Source: an uncultured delta proteobacterium (lineage in GTDB: Bacteria; Desulfobacterota; Binatia; Binatales; Binataceae). From it: DNA of 64,000 nucleotides. Within the stretch, counting starts at the first letter, position 1, and every line of letters begins with the position of its first letter. The DNA lies in the NCBI GenBank assembly GCA_963794325.1, contig CAWCDG010000004.1:1760001-1824000 (forward strand). The letters are read 5' to 3'. Below, piece after piece: positions 27,239 to 52,003 of this stretch. The position numbers were made by a program, and so were the translations under genes. Below the pieces are notes generated by a model. It saw only the letters and a list, made by a program, of their open reading frames with translations, was not told where the DNA came from and made no database searches.

Positions 27239-27313
27239 CGGGGTGTAGCTCAGCCTGGCCAGAGCACTGCGTTCGGGACGCAGGAGTCGCTGGTTCAAAT
27301 CCAGTCACCCCGA
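27239..27313 (+). tRNA. tRNA-Pro(CGG), CCA not encoded
   Basis: Acceptor CGGGGTG/CACCCCG, anticodon arm CTGCG-TTCGGGA-CGCAG, T-loop GTTCAAATC; extended -10 TGCTATAAC at 27192-27200. Confidence 0.96.
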
Positions 27314-42125: not shown

Positions 42126-42539
42126 TTACTTCGAGCTCTTCACCGGAGCACTGGGCATCGCAGTTTCGTTCGCGCGGATCGAAAGCGTCTGCAGCGCCTC
42201 GCCGAGATCGAGCTCGCTGTACTTCTGATTCGAGTACAAATCGTCGAGCCGCTTGACGGCCTGGTTCGCACTCACGTCGCCCATCGAGAGCTGTGCCGAG
42301 AGCTGGTGGATAATCCGGCGGGCGCCTTTCCAATGAAACAGGTCGGCGGCCGAATTAAGGACGTCGAGCTTGCCGACGCTGACGCGCATCGCGTCGGAAT
42401 AGCCATTGACGTAACCGTCTTTGGCGGTGGAGTTGAGACGGTTCCAGAAACTGCCATTGTGGCTGACGTTGGACGACGCAAAGGCAACTGCCCAACTGGC
42501 CACAAAGCCTAGCATCACGCCGGCGGCGAATTTCTTCAT
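42126..42539 (-). CDS. Hypothetical secreted protein
   Basis: Signal peptide MKKFAAGVMLG..AFA; own terminator. Confidence 0.75.
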   Translation of the reverse strand: MKKFAAGVMLGFVASWAVAFASSNVSHNGSFWNRLNSTAKDGYVNGYSDAMRVSVGKLDVLNSAADLFHWKGARRIIHQLSAQLSMGDVSANQAVKRLDDLYSNQKYSELDLGEALQTLSIRANETAMPSAPVKSSK

Positions 42540-42867
42540 TTCGCGATGATTCTCCCGAATCGGATAGCAACCCGTTTAGCAAAATTACGCATGTGTCGCA
42601 AAATCGTTACATCCCAAATTGGGTGGAATAGGCCGATAACGCTTAAGTAATATCGTTGTAACCTGTTGAAAACCCCGCTTACCCGGCCATATTGCCGCTG
42701 CCGAGGCCTACCCGCCACCCACAACACCGCGAAGTCTAGAACATTTCCAGAGCAAGGTAAATATGACCGATTAGCGTCCAAAAAGGTGCTTTCGGATACC
42801 AACAGGATTGAACGAGCGCGCCGCGCGGTGCCATGATCTTGCCGTCCCGGCCCGTGGCGCGAATCCC

Positions 42868-43971
42868 ATGTCCATCTATGAGCAGGTCCTCACGTTTATC
42901 CACAGGCCGGAGCCTGAATCGTTCCAGCGGATCGCGCTCGACGTTTTCCGTCATCAATTCGAAACAATCGCGGCGTACCGGCGGTACTGCGGGGCGCGCG
43001 GGGTCGAGCCCGGCGCGGTGCGCAGCGTTGACGATGTCCCGGCGGTCAGCAATGTCGCGTTCAAGTATGCCGACCTTGCGATTGAAGGCGCCGCGCTCTC
43101 GTCTGGTGCGGCGGTTTTTCTCACCAGCGGGACTATGCAGGGGCGCGAGCGGCGCGGACGTCATATCGTTGCGCGGCCTGAGATTTATCGCGCGTCGGCG
43201 ATCGCTCATCTGCGGACGATGCTATTCACCGACGCACGCCGAACAGCGATGCTCGCGATACATCCGACGGCTGAGGTGATGCCGGAGTCGTCGCTGTCGG
43301 CGATGATCAGCTGGAGTATCGAGGAGTTCGGGAGCGGCAGGACACTTGCGGCGGCGTCGCGCGACAAGGTCGACATTGCGGCGGCGATCGCGTTTCTTCG
43401 CGAGTGCGAGGCGCTGCGCGAGCCCGTTAGTATCATGGGGACGACGGCGGCGTTCGCGGCACTGTTCCCCGCGCTGGGCAGCACTGGCGTGAAAGTTCGG
43501 CTCGCCGCGGGTTCGCGAATGATGGACACCGGCGGGGCAAAAGGGCAGGCCGCCCCGATGCAAGCGTCGGAGGTGATCGCGCGGGCGAGAAAGATGCTCG
43601 CGATCGCGCCTGCGATGGTGATTAACGAATACGGGATGACGGAATTGTGCTCGCAGCTCTACGATGCGACGTCGTTCAACTGCGCAGGCGTGTCGGATGT
43701 GCAGGAGCGATTCAAAATTCCGCCGCCGTGGATGCGGGTGACGGCGCGCGACCCGGTTACGCTGCGGCCGATGCCGGACGGGGAAATCGGAATGCTCACG
43801 TTTTTCGATCTCGCTAACGTCGGATCGGTGTCGGCAGTCATGACTGAGGACCTTGGATTCGTCGAGCGCGGACGGGTGCGCGTGCTTGGCAGGGCGGCAG
43901 GCGGAGAGGCGCGCGGCTGCGCGCTGCGGATCGGGCAATTCTCGGAGACCGAAGCAGAGAATTTGCGATGA
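42868..43971 (+). CDS. LuxE-like acyl-protein synthetase
   Basis: ALDVFRHQ, FLTSGT, MDTGGAKG, NEYGMTELCSQLY, DLANVGSVSAVMTEDLG, GRA..EARGC. Confidence 0.85.
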   Translation: MSIYEQVLTFIHRPEPESFQRIALDVFRHQFETIAAYRRYCGARGVEPGAVRSVDDVPAVSNVAFKYADLAIEGAALSSGAAVFLTSGTMQGRERRGRHIVARPEIYRASAIAHLRTMLFTDARRTAMLAIHPTAEVMPESSLSAMISWSIEEFGSGRTLAAASRDKVDIAAAIAFLRECEALREPVSIMGTTAAFAALFPALGSTGVKVRLAAGSRMMDTGGAKGQAAPMQASEVIARARKMLAIAPAMVINEYGMTELCSQLYDATSFNCAGVSDVQERFKIPPPWMRVTARDPVTLRPMPDGEIGMLTFFDLANVGSVSAVMTEDLGFVERGRVRVLGRAAGGEARGCALRIGQFSETEAENLR

Positions 43972-45188
43972 GCGCGACGCTGGCGTCCAGAGCGAGACGC
44001 ATACTGAGGTCGGAGAGTGTCGATCGAATGAGCGACGCGCTGGCGCGGGCGTTCGAGCTCTGGCGCGACCGCAATTATGCACGCCGGCGCGACGCGATCG
44101 CGTCAATCGCGCGTTCGGCGGGATATTCGGTAGCGCTGCTCGAGAACTCGATCGACGCGCTGCTGAAGCCGTTCACCAGCGACGCGCTGAAGTTGATGGC
44201 GGGCACGGCGGCCCGCCCCACTTCTGACAGGCCAAAGACGATTGGATTCATCGCCGCGGGCAACGTGGCGGGCGCGGGAATCCATGAGATTGCGATCGCT
44301 CTGATCGCGGGCGCGAGGGTTCTAATCAAAACCGCGTCGGCGGAGCCGATATTTTTTGCGGAGTTTGCGCGCACGCTGGCGGAAGTCGATCGCGACGCCG
44401 GCGCACGCATCGAGGTAAGTCACTGGGGCCGCGAGCGCGCCGACCTCACCGCGTCATTGCTCGAGAAGTGCGAGCTGGTGATTGCGTTCGGCGACGACGC
44501 GACAATCGAGTCGCTCCACCGGCGCAATGTGATTGGATTCGGCAGCCGGGTGAGTGGCGCGCTGATCGCGCCCGATCGAATCGATTCGTCGCGACTCGAC
44601 GAGATTGCCGACTTGCTCGCGCGCGATGTCGCATTGTTCGAGCAGCTCGGATGCCTGTCGCTCCATCAGGTGTTCGTGATGAGTTCCGAAGGTCGTGCGA
44701 TGGCGGGCACGGCGGCCCGCCCCACTGATACGGCGCGGGAACTGGCGCTTCGGATGTCGATTGGGCTCGAACGGCTCAGCGAGTCGATGCCGCCGGCGCG
44801 CATCCCGATCCATGACGCCGCGGCAATCCGCGGAGTGCGGGAGCGCGCGCGCTGGCGCGCGATCGCGGGCGAGCCGGTCGAGCTGCTCGAAAGTCGCGGG
44901 CTTGGCTGGACGGTAATTTTCGAGCAGCGGCCGGATTCATTCAAAGTCTCGCCGGGATTCAGGACTGTGCAAGTAACCGCGGTACGCGATCTCGCGGAGT
45001 TTCGCGAATGCGTCGCGCCGGTGTCGGGACGGATCGAAGCGATGGCGGTGGTCGGCGACGATTGCGAAATCGAAGCGCGCGCGATGGGGATACCGTACGT
45101 TTGCGCGCCCGGCGAGATGCAATCGCCGCCGCTCGATTGGCGCCACGGTGGCGGCGGTTTTCTCGACATTATGATGGGATCGCGATGA
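43968..45188 (+). CDS. LuxC-like acyl-CoA/acyl-protein reductase
   Basis: FIAAGNV, VIAFGDDATI, GFGSRVS, DVALFEQLGCLS, PGEMQSPPLDWRHGG. Confidence 0.82.
   Translation: MSATLASRARRILRSESVDRMSDALARAFELWRDRNYARRRDAIASIARSAGYSVALLENSIDALLKPFTSDALKLMAGTAARPTSDRPKTIGFIAAGNVAGAGIHEIAIALIAGARVLIKTASAEPIFFAEFARTLAEVDRDAGARIEVSHWGRERADLTASLLEKCELVIAFGDDATIESLHRRNVIGFGSRVSGALIAPDRIDSSRLDEIADLLARDVALFEQLGCLSLHQVFVMSSEGRAMAGTAARPTDTARELALRMSIGLERLSESMPPARIPIHDAAAIRGVRERARWRAIAGEPVELLESRGLGWTVIFEQRPDSFKVSPGFRTVQVTAVRDLAEFRECVAPVSGRIEAMAVVGDDCEIEARAMGIPYVCAPGEMQSPPLDWRHGGGGFLDIMMGSR
44195..44222 (-). repeat. Family D REP-like palindrome in frame inside the LuxC-like CDS, copy 1
   Basis: GATGGCGGGCACGGCGGCCCGCCCCACT; its last 27 nt encode MAGTAARPT. 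Confidence 0.85.
44699..44726 (-). repeat. Family D REP-like palindrome in frame inside the LuxC-like CDS, copy 2
   Basis: Identical 28-mer to 44195-44222. Confidence 0.85.
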
Positions 45189-46384
45189 GCGAACTCGGGG
45201 ATTTCTTTCGGCGAAACCTGGCGCAGACGTCGGACGCGCCTATCGGATTGGAGATTTCGCACGCCGAGGGTTCGTGGCTGATCGCGTCGGATGGACGGCG
45301 CTATCTCGATTTCATCGCGGGCATCGGAGTGTCCGCGCTTGGCCATGGAAATCCCGAAGTGCTCGAGGCGATCGCGGCGCAGGCGCAACGCCATCTGCAT
45401 GTGATGGTGTACGGCGAGTACGTGATCGAGAGCCAGGTAATGCTGGCGCGGCGGCTGGTCGAGCTACTGCCGCGGCCGCTCGAATGCGTGTATTTCACCA
45501 ACAGTGGCGCGGAGGCGATCGAATGCGCGATGAAAGTGGCGCGCAAGTTTACCGGTCGCGCGGGTTTCGTCGCATTCGACGGTGCGTATCACGGTGACAC
45601 GATGGGCGCGCTGGCGCTGTGCGGGAATCCCGCGATGCGCGAGCCGTTCGGCGCGTTGCCGGGACCGGTGACGCATCTACCGTTCGACGATATTGCCGCG
45701 CTCGATAAAATCGATTCGACCATCGCGGCGGTGTTCGTCGAGCCGGTGCAGGCTGAGGGCGGCGTGCGTATTCCCGAGATTGGTTTCATCCGCGCACTGC
45801 GCGAATGCTGCGATCGCACGGGCGCGATGCTTGTCTTCGACGAGGTTCTGACCGGCTTCGGACGCACCGGCAAAATGTTCGCGCTCGAACAATTCGGCGT
45901 CGTCCCCGACATCCTCGTGATGGCCAAAGCGCTCGGCGGCGGATTGCCGCTTGGCGCGCTATGCAGCCGCAACGAGGTTCTTGGCACGCTCTCGCACGAT
46001 CCGCCGCTCGGACACATCACTACGTTTGGCGGGCATCCGCTCTCGTGCGCAGCCGGATTGGCCAGTCTGAACGTAATCGTGCGCGAGCGATTATGGGAGC
46101 GCGGCGCGACGATTGGCCAGGACATCGTACGACGCCTGTTGGCAATGCACGCGCCGGAAATAGCATCGGTGCGCGGGCTTGGTATGCTGGTGGGTATCGA
46201 GTTTCGCGACGCGGCGCTGGCGCATCGATTTGTCGCAGAAACTGTGGCGCGAGGGGTGATCGTAAACTGGACGCTCAATGCTGACAAGGTTGTCCGGCTT
46301 GCGCCGGTATTGACGATCACGCCGGACGAGATCGATTTTGCGTTCAGTGCAATGACCAAAGCGCTTGATGAAATCCGGCGCTGA
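45185..46384 (+). CDS. Class III PLP aminotransferase
   Basis: YLDFIAGIGV, FTNSGAEA, YHGDT, EPVQAEGG, DEVLTGFGRTG, PDILVMAKALGGG. Confidence 0.92.
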   Translation: MSELGDFFRRNLAQTSDAPIGLEISHAEGSWLIASDGRRYLDFIAGIGVSALGHGNPEVLEAIAAQAQRHLHVMVYGEYVIESQVMLARRLVELLPRPLECVYFTNSGAEAIECAMKVARKFTGRAGFVAFDGAYHGDTMGALALCGNPAMREPFGALPGPVTHLPFDDIAALDKIDSTIAAVFVEPVQAEGGVRIPEIGFIRALRECCDRTGAMLVFDEVLTGFGRTGKMFALEQFGVVPDILVMAKALGGGLPLGALCSRNEVLGTLSHDPPLGHITTFGGHPLSCAAGLASLNVIVRERLWERGATIGQDIVRRLLAMHAPEIASVRGLGMLVGIEFRDAALAHRFVAETVARGVIVNWTLNADKVVRLAPVLTITPDEIDFAFSAMTKALDEIRR

Positions 46385-46432: not shown

Positions 46433-47743
46433 TTGGCGGAGATCAGCAAATACAACGGCTCATCCGGGCTGACGAATTCGGGGGTCGGCCCCGCCAAACG
46501 CCAGTTCATCTGGACCGACGACGACGAGGAGTCGCTGCGAGTCCTGAAGCTCGCCGGCGCGCTCGGAATCTTCATGCTGCTGGCGTACCTTGCGTACGAC
46601 CAGCGAGTCCTCGGACGCCAAGCGCCGGGCAACGGCCCGCACTGGTTCATCCTTGCGGCGACCTGTTTGCTTTTCGGTCTGTCGTGGACGCATGCGTTCA
46701 GGCGCCGCTGGAAATTATGGATTCTGCTTTACAACCTGCTGCTGATAGCGACGCTCATCCTGATCAGCCGGAGCACCGGAGATCCCGAGTCGCGCTTCAT
46801 CGCGATCATGTTGTGTCCGCTGGCCACTGCTTCGTTCGTCAGCTGGGGAACGCGATGGCAATTTGCGATGGCTCTGACGGCGCTGCTGGGCTATGGGGCG
46901 GGCGAATATCTGGTGCCGATCGAATCGCCATATCGCGTGTACCGCTGGATGGGCCTGGTCGCGGCGCTGATCTTCGCGCAGTACACGGCGATCTTTATCG
47001 ATCGATACCGCAAGCGTCTGAGAAAGCAGGTCGAGGACCTCGAGGAAGCGGCGCGGTTTCGGCAGACACAAATCGCGACGATGGCGCATGACATCCGCAG
47101 TCCAGTCGCGGCCCTGAGCGGCTACGTCAGCTTGCTTGAGGACTCGGATACGGACGCAAAGGAGCGCACTGATCTGCTGGGGCGGATTGGCTCGACGGCC
47201 TGGAACATGGACCTGGTAGTCAGCAACGTGCTGGACTACTACGAGGCGCAGGATGACGACCTCGTCGCGGCGCCGGTCGAACTTGATCCGAATCAACTGG
47301 TCAGCGAGGTTGCGGAAGAGTGCGCTCTGCAGGCGCGGCGCCGGCGGCTGAACTTGCGCGTCGAGCTCACGCGGCTGCCGGCGTGCAAACTCGATCGCCG
47401 CCATTTTCAGCGAATAGTAAGAAATATGATCGCATATGCGCTCGGAAGGACGGCGACCGGAGAGGTCACGCTGCGGGCCGGCGTCCGAAACGACATGATC
47501 GCGATCGAAGTAACCGATAGCGGCCCGACTCTTTCCCAGGAGCAACTCGACGCACTGTTTGAGCGCCCCAATCGAAACGGAGATCGCAGCGCCGCGCGCG
47601 GACTTGGACTGTATATCGCGCAAGCGATGGCGAAGGCATCGGGAGGACGGACCGGGGCGCGGTTCGCGGACGGCCGGCGCGGGCTGACTCTGGTCGCGGA
47701 ATTCCCGCTTGAAGAGCAACCAGCGAAAGCGCGCACGCCGTGA
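46433..47743 (+). CDS. Membrane sensor histidine kinase with a degenerate ATPase domain
   Basis: About 5-6 TM segments, AHDIRSP H-box, NMIAYA, DSGPT, GLGL. Confidence 0.8.
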   Translation: MAEISKYNGSSGLTNSGVGPAKRQFIWTDDDEESLRVLKLAGALGIFMLLAYLAYDQRVLGRQAPGNGPHWFILAATCLLFGLSWTHAFRRRWKLWILLYNLLLIATLILISRSTGDPESRFIAIMLCPLATASFVSWGTRWQFAMALTALLGYGAGEYLVPIESPYRVYRWMGLVAALIFAQYTAIFIDRYRKRLRKQVEDLEEAARFRQTQIATMAHDIRSPVAALSGYVSLLEDSDTDAKERTDLLGRIGSTAWNMDLVVSNVLDYYEAQDDDLVAAPVELDPNQLVSEVAEECALQARRRRLNLRVELTRLPACKLDRRHFQRIVRNMIAYALGRTATGEVTLRAGVRNDMIAIEVTDSGPTLSQEQLDALFERPNRNGDRSAARGLGLYIAQAMAKASGGRTGARFADGRRGLTLVAEFPLEEQPAKARTP

Positions 47744-48729
47744 GGAAACTGCCCGCGTCCGGCAAACTCTCCAGCGAATTTGAACTGATCGCACGGCTCA
47801 GTGCGGGAATCCATCTGAGCCGCCGCACGATCCTAGGCGTCGGCGACGACTGCGCAATTGTCTCGCGGCCGCGCGGGAACCTGCTGTTTACGATAGACAG
47901 CCTGGTCGAGAACGTTCACTTCGATCTGCGATGGGGCTCTCCGGAAGCGCTTGGTGCGCGCGCGCTCGCGGTCAACTTGAGCGATATCGCAGCGATGGGC
48001 GGGCGTCCGACGGCATGCGTGGTGAACCTCGGTGTGCGCGAAGGAATTGCGTCGCGGATGCTCGAGCGAATTTACTGTGGACTGCGCGCTGCGGCGCGCG
48101 CAGCTTCGACGGATATCGTGGGCGGCAATATCACGCGCGCGCGCGAGCTGTCGATCACGATTGCGCTTACCGGCGAGGCCGGGCGCGGCGTGATGCGGCG
48201 CGATACGGCTCGGCCCGGCGACGAGATCTATGTGACCGGCACTCTAGGCGACGCCGCGCTCGGCTGGCGTATCCTGGCGGGCAAGTTGAAGACGGGAAAA
48301 AATCGAGTGGTGACAAAATATCTGACAGAGCGATTCATCCGTCCGAAGGCGCAGCTCTATGCCGGACAACGGCTTGCGACGCTGCGGCCCGCGCCAGCCG
48401 CCATCGACGTCAGCGACGGACTCATGCAGGACCTCGGGCACATCCTCGAACGAAGCGGCGTCGGCGCCGAGATCGACGCGTCGCGAATTCCGATCTCGCC
48501 GGCGTATCGTGCGCTGATGGGCGGAGATCTCGTGCATGCGCTGACCGGCGGCGAGGATTATGAACTGATCTTCTGCGTGAAGCCGGGCCACAGCGAATCC
48601 GAACTGTCACGTCGCTTGCACATGGGCGTGCGGCGAATCGGTAAGATCGTCAAGGGCAAGCGCCTGAACGTGATTGGTGCCAGCGCGCCGATTGACGCAG
48701 GATGGGATCAGCTGCGCTCGCGCGGATAA
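47740..48729 (+). CDS. thiL: Thiamine-monophosphate kinase
   Basis: EFELI, GVGDDCA, NLSDIAAMGG, IDVSDGL, GGEDYEL. Confidence 0.95.
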   Translation: MRKLPASGKLSSEFELIARLSAGIHLSRRTILGVGDDCAIVSRPRGNLLFTIDSLVENVHFDLRWGSPEALGARALAVNLSDIAAMGGRPTACVVNLGVREGIASRMLERIYCGLRAAARAASTDIVGGNITRARELSITIALTGEAGRGVMRRDTARPGDEIYVTGTLGDAALGWRILAGKLKTGKNRVVTKYLTERFIRPKAQLYAGQRLATLRPAPAAIDVSDGLMQDLGHILERSGVGAEIDASRIPISPAYRALMGGDLVHALTGGEDYELIFCVKPGHSESELSRRLHMGVRRIGKIVKGKRLNVIGASAPIDAGWDQLRSRG

Positions 48730-49953: not shown

Positions 49954-51236
49954 CGGTCGTTTGGCTGGTGGTCGCCTTGTTCGGATGTCTTATGGTGCAG
50001 GCGTTTTTCGCCGCGTCCGAGATTGCACTGGTTTCCGCCGACGATTTGAAAGTTCGCGCGGAGAGCGAAGGCGGTCACGCGCGCTCGCGAGTGCTCGACG
50101 AGCTGCTGACCAATCGAGATCGTTTGCTGGCGCTCACTCTCACCGGCACCAACGTCGCCACGGTGATTGCCGCGGTGGTGCTCACCAGCGCGCTGTATCA
50201 AATCGGCCCGCGCCTGGTTTATCTTGCGCCGTTGATTCTGACGCCGATAACGCTGGTGCTCGGCGAATCGGTCCCGAAGCTGCTGACGCTTACCAATCCT
50301 CACCGGTTTGCATTGTTCGTCGCGAGGCCGCTGCGGTTGCTCGCGAGGATTCTTGCGCCGCTGCTCTATGTGGAAACTCTGTTGAGCAGATTGCTGCGCC
50401 GGCTTGCCGGTGTGCCGGCCGACGCCGAGAGCGTGTTCCTGAGCCGCGAAGATTTGGCGCGCCTGATGCGCCGACGGCCGAGCGACGCATCCGATCCGTC
50501 GCACGACGCCATCCTGCCCGTCGAGCAGCAGATGATCAGCCGCATATTTCGTTTCTCGCGGGCCGAGGCGCGCAAGGCGATGGTGCCGCTGGTGGGCGTC
50601 GATGCGGTGCCTGAGGAAACCTCGCTGGCCGCCGCGATCGAAACTGTTCGCCGCGAAGGCTTCAGCCGCATCCCGGTGTTTCGGCGCCGAATCACGGACA
50701 TCGTCGGCGTCGTTCACGTCTTCGATCTTTTGCAGGCGCCCGATCTCAGCCGCCCAGTCAGCGACATCATGCGGCCGGTCAGCTATTTTCCCGAATCGAT
50801 GCCGCTCGACGAGGCGCTACTGGCGATGCAACGCACCGGGGAAAATCTCGCGGTGATCGTCGATGAGTACGGCGGCTCGGCCGGAATTCTGACGTTGGAA
50901 GATCTGATCGAAGAAATCGTCGGCGATATCGAGGACGAACACGACCTCGGCGAGGAGCTGACCAGGGTGGTCAGTCCGCGCATGCTGTCGGTGATCGGAC
51001 GCGCGCCGATTATGGAATTGAACGAGCGCTTCGGCCTCAAGCTTTCGGAGGCGGATGAGTATGCTACGATCGGCGGGTTGGTGGTCGAACGACTCGGGCA
51101 CATTCCCAAGCCCGGCGAAAAATTAATCGAGGGCGATTTGACGATCACGGTTACGCGCAGCGATGCACGCGCGGTGCGCGAATTGATGCTGACACTTGCG
51201 CATCCGATCCGCCCTGAGCTCCTCAAGCGGCGATGA
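49950..51236 (+). CDS. CNNM/CorC-family protein, tandem paralog
   Basis: FFAASEIALVS, GESVPK, FSRIPV, VDEYGG..LTLEDLIEEIVGDIEDEHD. Confidence 0.9.
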   Translation: MTVVWLVVALFGCLMVQAFFAASEIALVSADDLKVRAESEGGHARSRVLDELLTNRDRLLALTLTGTNVATVIAAVVLTSALYQIGPRLVYLAPLILTPITLVLGESVPKLLTLTNPHRFALFVARPLRLLARILAPLLYVETLLSRLLRRLAGVPADAESVFLSREDLARLMRRRPSDASDPSHDAILPVEQQMISRIFRFSRAEARKAMVPLVGVDAVPEETSLAAAIETVRREGFSRIPVFRRRITDIVGVVHVFDLLQAPDLSRPVSDIMRPVSYFPESMPLDEALLAMQRTGENLAVIVDEYGGSAGILTLEDLIEEIVGDIEDEHDLGEELTRVVSPRMLSVIGRAPIMELNERFGLKLSEADEYATIGGLVVERLGHIPKPGEKLIEGDLTITVTRSDARAVRELMLTLAHPIRPELLKRR

Positions 51237-52003
51237 CAGAAAAGCGAATTCGCAAAATCCTCGACGGCGTTGCCGCGGGCAGGATGACTGCCAGTGCAGC
51301 GTTCAAACACATCGGTCAGCTGCCATTCGAGGATCTTGGATTCGCCAAAATCGACAATCATAGAAGCGTCCGGCGCGGAATTCCCGAAGTGGTTTTCGGC
51401 GAAGGCAAGACTGCGGATCAGCTCGCGGCGATAGGTCTGCGCGTGCTCGCCTCCGGAACGAATCTGATTATCACGCGGCTCGACGCGAACAAGGCGCGTA
51501 TCGTCAAACGGAAAATTCGCAGGCTGGATTATCATGCGGATGCTCGCATCGGCGTCGTCGTCAAGGAGCGCGTGAAGCCGTCGGGGCAGGGCGTCGTGAT
51601 GGTGATGAGTGCGGGCACTTCCGACATTCCGGTCGCCGAGGAAGCGGCGTGTTGCGCCGAGCTGTTCGGAAATCGCGTGGCGCGAATCTACGACGTCGGA
51701 GTCGCGGGGATTCATCGGCTTACTGCGAACCTCGACTCGATCCGCAAGGCGAGCGTGCTGATCGTCGTCGCGGGAATGGAAGGCGCGCTGCCGTCGGTCG
51801 TCGCGGGCCTGATCGATAAGCCCGTGATTGCGGTGCCGACCAGCGTCGGCTACGGAGCATCGATGGGCGGGCTGGCGGCGCTGCTCGGGATGCTGAATTC
51901 GTGCGCGAGCGGCGTGACCGTCGTCAATATCGACAATGGTTTCGGCGCGGCGCTCGCGGCCACGCTGATCAACCGGGTGGGAATCGAGCGCGACGGCCGC
52001 TGA
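51233..52003 (+). CDS. larB: Nickel-pincer cofactor biosynthesis protein LarB
   Basis: AKIDNHR..GIPEVVFGEGKT, AGTSDIPVAEEA, DVGVAGIHRL, AGMEGALPSVV, VNIDNGFGAA. Confidence 0.92.
   Translation: MTEKRIRKILDGVAAGRMTASAAFKHIGQLPFEDLGFAKIDNHRSVRRGIPEVVFGEGKTADQLAAIGLRVLASGTNLIITRLDANKARIVKRKIRRLDYHADARIGVVVKERVKPSGQGVVMVMSAGTSDIPVAEEAACCAELFGNRVARIYDVGVAGIHRLTANLDSIRKASVLIVVAGMEGALPSVVAGLIDKPVIAVPTSVGYGASMGGLAALLGMLNSCASGVTVVNIDNGFGAALAATLINRVGIERDGR

Follow-up and report, generated by a model that had tools for sequence, protein, structure and literature searches.

A 64,000-nucleotide stretch of the genome of an uncultured Binataceae bacterium (G000:C4:1760001-1824000; genome 4.45 Mb, 85% complete), here called the window, carries three overlapping genes on its forward strand. 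They encode a LuxE-like carboxylate-activating enzyme of 367 amino acids (window positions 42868..43971; family PF04443), a LuxC-like thioester reductase of 406 amino acids (43968..45188; PF05893), and a dedicated class III aminotransferase (AT) of 399 amino acids (45185..46384; PF00202). The open reading frame (ORF) of the LuxE-like protein has an ATG start at 42868, with an in-frame TTG upstream at 42808. Both junctions read gcgATGAgcg, with a 4-base overlap of stop and start codons at 43968-71 and 45185-88, confirming the ATGA coupling noted in a preliminary description of this locus. The catalytic motifs listed there are likewise present in the translations: the RGC cysteine is Cys351 of the LuxE-like protein, QLGCLS (within ...FEQLGCLS...) contains the catalytic Cys229 of the LuxC-like protein, and MAKALGGG contains Lys248, the pyridoxal phosphate (PLP) lysine of AT. 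We refer to the three genes as the trio.

The LuxE-like protein passes the Pfam model PF04443 (58.9 bits; cutoff, 24.9) and fails the NCBIfam equivalog model for long-chain-fatty-acid--protein ligase (NF052244; 61.3 bits versus 550). Judged from its sequence, it is a member of the LuxE family and not an ortholog of the lux enzyme. It matches the LuxE chain 7xc6_E with an E value of 1.6e-14. Cys351 lies in a C-terminal arm (...GGEARGCALR...) and is invariant in all 36 LuxE-like relatives. The arm fits the motif TRxxKGCxLS that PMC9157457 gives for the flexible C-terminal segment of LuxE, in which Cys364 (Photobacterium phosphoreum numbering) bears the acyl group. LuxE also has a catalytic Lys238/Arg355 pair; Lys225 of the window protein, in TGGxKG, is invariant in 35/35 aligned relatives and may correspond to Lys238.

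The LuxC-like protein shows the same pattern, passing PF05893 (126.9 bits; cutoff, 21) and failing the equivalog model NF052251 (44.2 bits versus 750). Cys229 aligns with the cysteine of ...QQACFS... in the LuxC chain 7xc6_A and does not vary in any of 24 diverse relatives; the catalytic cysteine of LuxC is Cys296 in the numbering of PMC9157457. An AlphaFold model (pLDDT 92) has 7xc6_A as its best fold match in the PDB (TM score 0.75, E value of 8.9e-18, 17% identity), and the protein is shorter than that chain (406 versus 477 amino acids). According to PMC9157457, LuxC has a long, hydrophobic, L-shaped cleft that is completed by a C-terminal oligomerization segment (P460-P488). In a representative library, all five long relatives (706 to 821 amino acids) carry the LuxE and LuxC Pfam domains, apparently in one chain. 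These apparent fusions, together with the solved LuxC-LuxE complex, argue that the LuxE-like and LuxC-like proteins would bind each other. The single-chain proteins, all from metagenomes, are P0141, P0142, P0149, P0273, and P0240, and one locus encoding such a chain is L304:1909-4200.

AT passes the Aminotran_3 model PF00202 (348.4 bits; cutoff, 30.5) and falls below every NCBIfam cutoff. Its best match is an acetylornithine transaminase model (NF002874; 368.7 bits versus 457), and it also fails the models for ArgD (TIGR00707; 353.4 versus 410.05), PatA (NF008570; 317.2 versus 612, with Asp at the position of PatA Lys183), and BioA (TIGR00508; 268.6 versus 405). The genome contains eight class III AT genes (nine Pfam matches, as one ORF contains two). 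One of these, at C4:599182-600585, is the true ArgD, with 477.3 bits against the TIGR00707 cutoff of 410; another passes the γ-aminobutyrate aminotransferase (GABA-AT) model, and a further one is HemL. The preliminary description had allowed that the trio AT might be the sole ArgD; given the gene at C4:599182-600585, it is not, and the trio AT is not ArgD.

A tree of 45 class III proteins, including BioA, ArgD, PatA, and GabT of Escherichia coli K-12 and the paralogs from the Binataceae genome, gathers every LuxE/LuxC-linked AT from Binatia, Methylomirabilota, and Nitrospirota into a single clade (support 100/99), whose sisters are the clades of ArgD and PatA. Because this clade scores best against acetylornithine transaminase models, albeit below their cutoffs, its members are at risk of being named as such. 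E. coli BioA falls outside the 37-row clade of ArgD, PatA, and trio proteins. It has Asp147 at the site of AT Asp138, and a YHGDT motif is the sole feature that the two have in common. A link to biotin, considered from this BioA-like motif, was rejected: BioB is present, BioD gives a weak match only, and AT is distant from BioA in the tree.

The substrate site sets the LuxE/LuxC-linked clade apart from its relatives. In acetylornithine aminotransferase, ornithine aminotransferase (OAT; Arg180), and GABA-AT/GabT (Arg141), an arginine forms a salt bridge with the substrate carboxylate, and PatA has Lys183 at this position, according to PMC4244111. Arginine also occupies the site in ArgD and GabT of both E. 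coli and the Binataceae genome. In the trio AT, the position is Asp138, which is invariant across the LuxE/LuxC-linked clade. Lys248, Glu191, and Arg371 are each kept in 15/15 clade members (compare the Glu235/Arg413 pair of OAT), and this retention points to glutamate/2-oxoglutarate as the cosubstrate. Glu78 in the substrate site is invariant as well, and the entrance residues Ile47, Leu275, and Leu364 are hydrophobic, as in PatA. With Asp138 in place of the carboxylate-binding arginine, the aldehyde substrate probably lacks a carboxylate at this site and may instead present hydrogen-bond donors or a positive charge there. Two acidic side chains (Asp138 and Glu78) would be well matched to the amino-pyrimidinone face of a deazaguanine.

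A large group of Bacteroidota ATs is nested within the trio AT clade. Among the 80 loci of a reciprocal scan, 57 encoded such proteins, in which Ser or Asn occupies the position of Asp138, and none of the 57 had LuxE or LuxC within 5 kb. These proteins (L124-L177, L179, L180, L185; e.g., L127:4986-6173 and L175:4992-6179), from records that include the cultured genera Sphingobacterium, Pedobacter, Flavobacterium, and Algibacter, miss all NCBIfam cutoffs. An arginine link for this group was rejected, as the neighbors are purA, a tetratricopeptide repeat protein, polyprenyl-phosphate transporters, and aroE, with no arg genes. Five Bacteroidota genomes gave only weak partial LuxC matches (26 to 34 bits) far from AT, and control genomes without lux match too.

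Conservation of the trio was scored by tblastn in 107 loci around LuxC relatives, grouped by record title and identity band; some of the titles are plainly mislabeled. AT was found beside LuxC in 94 of these loci and LuxE in 97. Of the 13 loci without AT, nine have short flanks, and four have at least 3 kb on either side (one Binataceae-like locus, L069; two Arthrobacter; and one Stahlbacteria). The Binataceae loci have the whole neighborhood in common and, being kin, amount to little more than one observation. Outside this family, the neighbors are entirely different and the trio is retained. AT occurs in 19/19 of the other Binatia-like loci, often with one to three inserted genes, and in 8/8 Methylomirabilota-like loci, seven of which have the order AT-LuxE-LuxC. 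It is also present in 4/6 Nitrospirota-like loci, with the remaining two having short flanks. In these groups, identity to the window proteins is about 50% for AT and falls to about 30% for LuxC. The linkage expected in the preliminary description thus extends across phyla, even with rearranged gene order. A second set of 80 metagenome loci, retrieved by a scan with an alignment as the query, has LuxE-LuxC-AT on every contig of sufficient length (AT in 46/80); when P0142, one of the fused proteins, served as the only query, the metagenome scan returned no relative. Two Vulcanimicrobiota trios (L039:4665-8297 and L040:4914-8531) contain an AT from another class III lineage, with Leu at the Asp138 site. 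Because of this separate lineage, the same three-enzyme logic is, as read from the sequences, assembled at least twice.

LuxE-LuxC pairs also occur in other arrangements. In Arthrobacter, Nocardioidaceae, and Stahlbacteria (L101:4541-8090; L097; L102:4634-8215; L114; L111), the pair is followed by a short-chain dehydrogenase and has no AT, and this may be a variant that leads from acid to aldehyde to alcohol. The Arthrobacter loci have a sodium:solute symporter upstream of LuxE-LuxC. L069, L310, and L373 have LuxE-LuxC without AT within 6 kb downstream. Their LuxC proteins are 39%, 39%, and 30% identical to that of the window, respectively, which puts L069 and L310 near the trio type and L373 at a greater distance; AT may have been lost or moved in these cases.

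Because the trio is conserved, its order differs in the Methylomirabilota-like loci, and an unrelated AT takes part in Vulcanimicrobiota, we consider it very likely that the three genes form one functional module converting an acid to an aldehyde and then to a primary amine, without a carrier protein. As modeled on the solved LuxC-LuxE complex, the LuxE-like enzyme would adenylate the acid and hold it as a thioester on Cys351 of the flexible C-terminal arm. From the arm, the acyl group would move to Cys229 of the LuxC-like protein, where reduction with NAD(P)H would yield the aldehyde. AT, with PLP on Lys248, would then aminate this aldehyde; retention of the Glu191/Arg371 pair makes glutamate the likely donor. 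The preliminary description had proposed that the operon makes a fatty or other primary amine. The acid-to-aldehyde-to-amine unit is upheld by the linkage of AT across phyla, whereas a fatty substrate is doubtful in view of the absence of a conserved lipid gene, the residues Asp138 and Glu78, and the pathway gaps described below. These gaps, together with gene neighbors in other phyla, point to 7-carboxy-7-deazaguanine (CDG), the product of QueE, as the favored candidate substrate. The trio would convert CDG to 7-formyl-7-deazaguanine and then to preQ1, replacing QueC and QueF in queuosine synthesis.

The tRNA modification queuosine is nearly universal. QueC and QueF lead from CDG to preQ1 via an amide and a nitrile (preQ0), followed by a four-electron reduction, and this nitrile route is, to our knowledge, the only described de novo way to preQ1. 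Genomes with QueE, Tgt, and QueA that lack QueC and QueF are read as salvage dependent or incomplete. The Binataceae genome contains adjacent genes for Tgt (491 bits) and QueA (372 bits), a QueE (phmmer E value of 2.4e-15 to E. coli QueE; TIGR04349 E value of 7.6e-86, 287 bits versus a cutoff of 300), FolE, and a QueD-like 6-pyruvoyltetrahydropterin synthase (PTPS; PF01242, 82 bits). No QueF was found in this genome (the best match, 21.5 bits, is FolE), nor was a YhhQ-type precursor transporter. Two QueC-like PP-loop paralogs score 93.5 and 79.8 bits versus the QueC cutoff of 150.3.

The gap recurs in other genomes with a trio. We considered 12 of them: the Binataceae genome itself; G006-G010, comprising three complete Binatia chromosomes, one NC10, and one Nitrospiria; G115 and G152 (Binatia); and G161-G164, comprising two Vulcanimicrobiota and two large "delta" metagenome-assembled genomes. 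None of the 12 contains QueF above the cutoff. QueC above the cutoff is absent from all six genomes of the subset formed by the Binataceae genome and G006-G010, and no match in two complete Binatia chromosomes exceeds 24 bits. Within G006-G010, QueE-like genes are present in 5/5 and QueA in 4/5. As background, QueF scored above the cutoff in 62 of 71 sampled Nitrospirota, with the sole LuxC-like genome there being among the nine without QueF, and in 42 of the 81 genomes sampled from the phylum to which the window belongs. Two genomes that have LuxE-LuxC and no AT contain QueF.

Queuosine genes also appear as neighbors of LuxE/LuxC in two other phyla. In one Methylomirabilota-like locus (L087), a gene with QueG_DUF1730 (PF08331, 76.9 bits), Fer4_16, and HEAT domains lies 93 bases 5' of AT; with its cluster mates in L082, L085, L104, and L115, such a QueG-like gene stands directly 5' of AT-LuxE-LuxC in five Methylomirabilota-like loci. 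In a Verrucomicrobiota clade, the gene next after LuxC is QueD (TIGR03367, 109.8 bits; cutoff, 89.25) in 69 of 80 loci, and a complete chromosome of this clade is also without QueF. Examples of these LuxE/LuxC/QueD strings are L227:3601-7732, L288:3688-7700, and L112:849-3862. A 376-amino-acid gene after QueD in L112 was considered as an AT and ruled out, being a GSU2086-family protein.

Several observations weigh against a role of the trio in preQ1 synthesis. The neighborhood of the trio is free of queuosine genes in this window and in Binataceae, and tblastn (E ≤ 1e-5) of the 80 metagenome trio loci gave no matches to QueD, QueE, QueC-like proteins, QueG, FolE, Tgt, or QueA. A search of Rfam at the gathering score in the window and 20 loci found no preQ1 riboswitch and no other family beside the trio. 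The Verrucomicrobiota LuxE-LuxC-QueD cluster is without AT and often has a major facilitator superfamily-like gene between LuxE and LuxC. The absence of QueF is not specific: it extends to 39 of the 81 phylum genomes, 36 of which are also without a LuxC-like gene, and the 12 QueF-less trio genomes represent only about four or five independent lineages, as the Binatia are kin. The QueD-like PTPS of the Binataceae genome is below the TIGR03367 cutoff (59.7 versus 89.25 bits), and the QueC-like paralogs found in this genome and in G006, G009, and G010 could be diverged QueC. Finally, the only characterized LuxE/LuxC pair uses myristate (PMC9157457), a fatty acid. On balance, we put forward the whole statement, that the trio leads from CDG to preQ1 independently of QueC and QueF, as a tentative proposal that falls a little short of probable. 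The two QueC-like paralogs of the Binataceae genome lie at G000:C4:1257589-1258188 and C7:33216-33815 (L213 and L214), and one of them stands in a string with genes of 219 and 442 amino acids that match no NCBIfam model.

The fusions, the AT linkage, and the double assembly would also fit if the same three-step chemistry acted on another small acid, polar or aromatic, that has no connection with queuosine (for instance, the precursor of a cofactor or metabolite), with the queuosine signals being coincidental. The lack of queuosine genes beside the trio in Binataceae and the 80 metagenome loci and the frequent absence of QueF in the phylum are in keeping with such a substrate, as are the nested Bacteroidota ATs, which have Ser or Asn in place of Asp138, no accompanying LuxE or LuxC, and uninformative surroundings. 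Still, the QueG and QueD genes flanking LuxE/LuxC in two phyla would go unexplained, as would the lack of QueF in 12/12 trio genomes, several of which keep QueE and QueA, and we regard this alternative as possible although rather unlikely. The view taken in the preliminary description, in which LuxE and LuxC turn a fatty acid into a fatty aldehyde and AT turns the latter into a fatty primary amine, has precedent in the use of myristate by the characterized pair and in the tambjamine pathway, where TabE, a reductase reported to cluster with LuxC, and the class III transaminase TabA yield dodecylamine (bioRxiv 10.1101/2025.08.11.669332). The hydrophobic AT entrance shared with PatA (Ile47, Leu275, Leu364) and an SCP2 gene downstream at one locus (L081) are compatible with it. 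However, the trio has no conserved partner gene for fatty acids, lipids, carrier proteins, or export, its LuxE-like and LuxC-like proteins miss the two lux equivalog models by a wide margin (61 versus 550 and 44 versus 750 bits), and the reductase has only 406 amino acids against the 477 of 7xc6_A. The invariant Asp138 and Glu78 would be odd partners for an alkyl chain, and the trio is single copy in a housekeeping setting; a fatty amine thus appears improbable.

A diamine (putrescine, cadaverine, or 1,3-diaminopropane) could be made from an omega-amino acid if the PatA/PatD degradation route ran in reverse. AT is sister to PatA and ArgD and has the equivalent of PatA Glu120 and the hydrophobic entrance in common with PatA, and the acidic Asp138 could hold a distal ammonium. 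The 85% complete Binataceae genome is without spermidine synthase (PF01564), OKR-type decarboxylases (PF01276), and arginase/agmatinase (PF00491), and its only PF02784 gene is LysA. The usual polyamine routes are thus not visible in a search confined to these families. The argument comes from residues and from an incomplete genome, and it leaves the queuosine neighbors and the QueF pattern without explanation; we give a diamine slightly less credence than a fatty amine. That AT is an arginine/ornithine-type paralog merely standing beside a LuxE/LuxC pair, with no shared pathway, is highly implausible. Its best NCBIfam matches are indeed acetylornithine transaminase models, but these are below the cutoff, the true ArgD lies elsewhere, and the substrate-binding arginine is replaced. 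The genes are coupled by 4-base start-stop overlaps, the linkage survives rearrangement, and the trio was assembled twice.

The trio can be set beside several known systems. With LuxC-LuxE of P. phosphoreum (PDB 7XC6; PMC9157457), it shares both Pfam families, the C-terminal Cys arm, the catalytic Cys, and the adjacency of the genes, which are apparently fused in some relatives. Unlike that pair, it has a reductase of 17% identity that is about 70 residues shorter, is coupled to AT, and probably acts on a substrate other than a fatty acid. TabE/TabA of the tambjamine BE-18591 pathway in Streptomyces likewise combine a thioester reductase with a class III transaminase to give a primary amine (bioRxiv 10.1101/2025.08.11.669332). 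TamH of the tambjamine YP1 pathway also couples reduction to transamination, with an unrelated thioester reductase domain (PMC9594044). In contrast to the trio, the tambjamine enzymes belong to secondary-metabolite clusters and receive the acyl chain from a carrier protein; in the trio, a LuxE-type activator would replace the carrier, and the setting is a housekeeping one. E. coli PatA/YgjG (PDB 4UOX; PMC4244111) and ArgD resemble the trio AT in fold, sister-clade position, catalytic Lys, and Glu/Arg pair, and PatA also resembles it in its hydrophobic entrance; the trio AT differs in having Asp where ArgD has Arg and PatA has Lys and in missing all NCBIfam cutoffs. Flagellin glycosylation islands also contain genes annotated as LuxE/LuxC homologs, without luciferase; these assignments are by annotation only and have no tie to a class III AT (PMC7874193, PMC4875605, PMC7575072).

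If the trio does make preQ1 from CDG, it would share with QueC and QueF the CDG substrate, the preQ1 product, and the ATP-dependent activation of the acid. It has no homology to these enzymes and would proceed via a thioester, an aldehyde, and transamination. The same reductase-plus-transaminase logic is found in PigE and MxcG/MxcL. In open PMC full text and bioRxiv, a scope in which subscription papers could be missed, we found no description of the trio or of an aminotransferase route to preQ1. The trio is a real, conserved, and undescribed variant of known module chemistry. Should the CDG assignment be true, the thioester/aldehyde/transamination route would close a preQ1 gap in several poorly known soil phyla: the de novo queuosine pathway, which looks incomplete in current annotation, would then be whole in Binatia, Methylomirabilota, Vulcanimicrobiota, and some Nitrospirota. 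Whatever its substrate, the trio would offer biocatalysis a possibly useful acid-to-amine system that is compact and needs no carrier protein.

The surroundings of the trio in the window are of a housekeeping kind, and its LuxC-family gene is the only one above the cutoff in the genome. Named from translations only, the neighbors include glycyl-tRNA synthetase, PPDK, a protease, CNNM-type proteins, LarB, LexA, RibF, and tol-pal; a histidine kinase (46433-47743) and ThiL (47740-48729) were checked against PDB sequences. No luxA, luxB, or luxD was seen on reading the ORF translations of 34 to 64 kb, a region in which no family search was made. The 328-base gap 5' of the trio holds a promoter-like site on the forward strand (TTGAAA-16-CATATT, 42666..42693) with a 9/12 match to the consensus only; such sites number six in a 6.8-kb region versus 2.1 expected, which makes this one weak. 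Rfam gave no match at E ≤ 1 in 42500-42900, and the only match in the window at the gathering score is a tRNA gene at 27239-27313. The LarB-like gene (51233-52003) lies 5 kb 3' of the trio, and a LarC-like gene stands directly 5' of QueE (G000:C4:1380410-1381762), both identified by reading translations. By tblastn, LarB-like genes also occur in Methylomirabilota-like loci, 1.4 to 2.6 kb from the trio and on the opposite strand.

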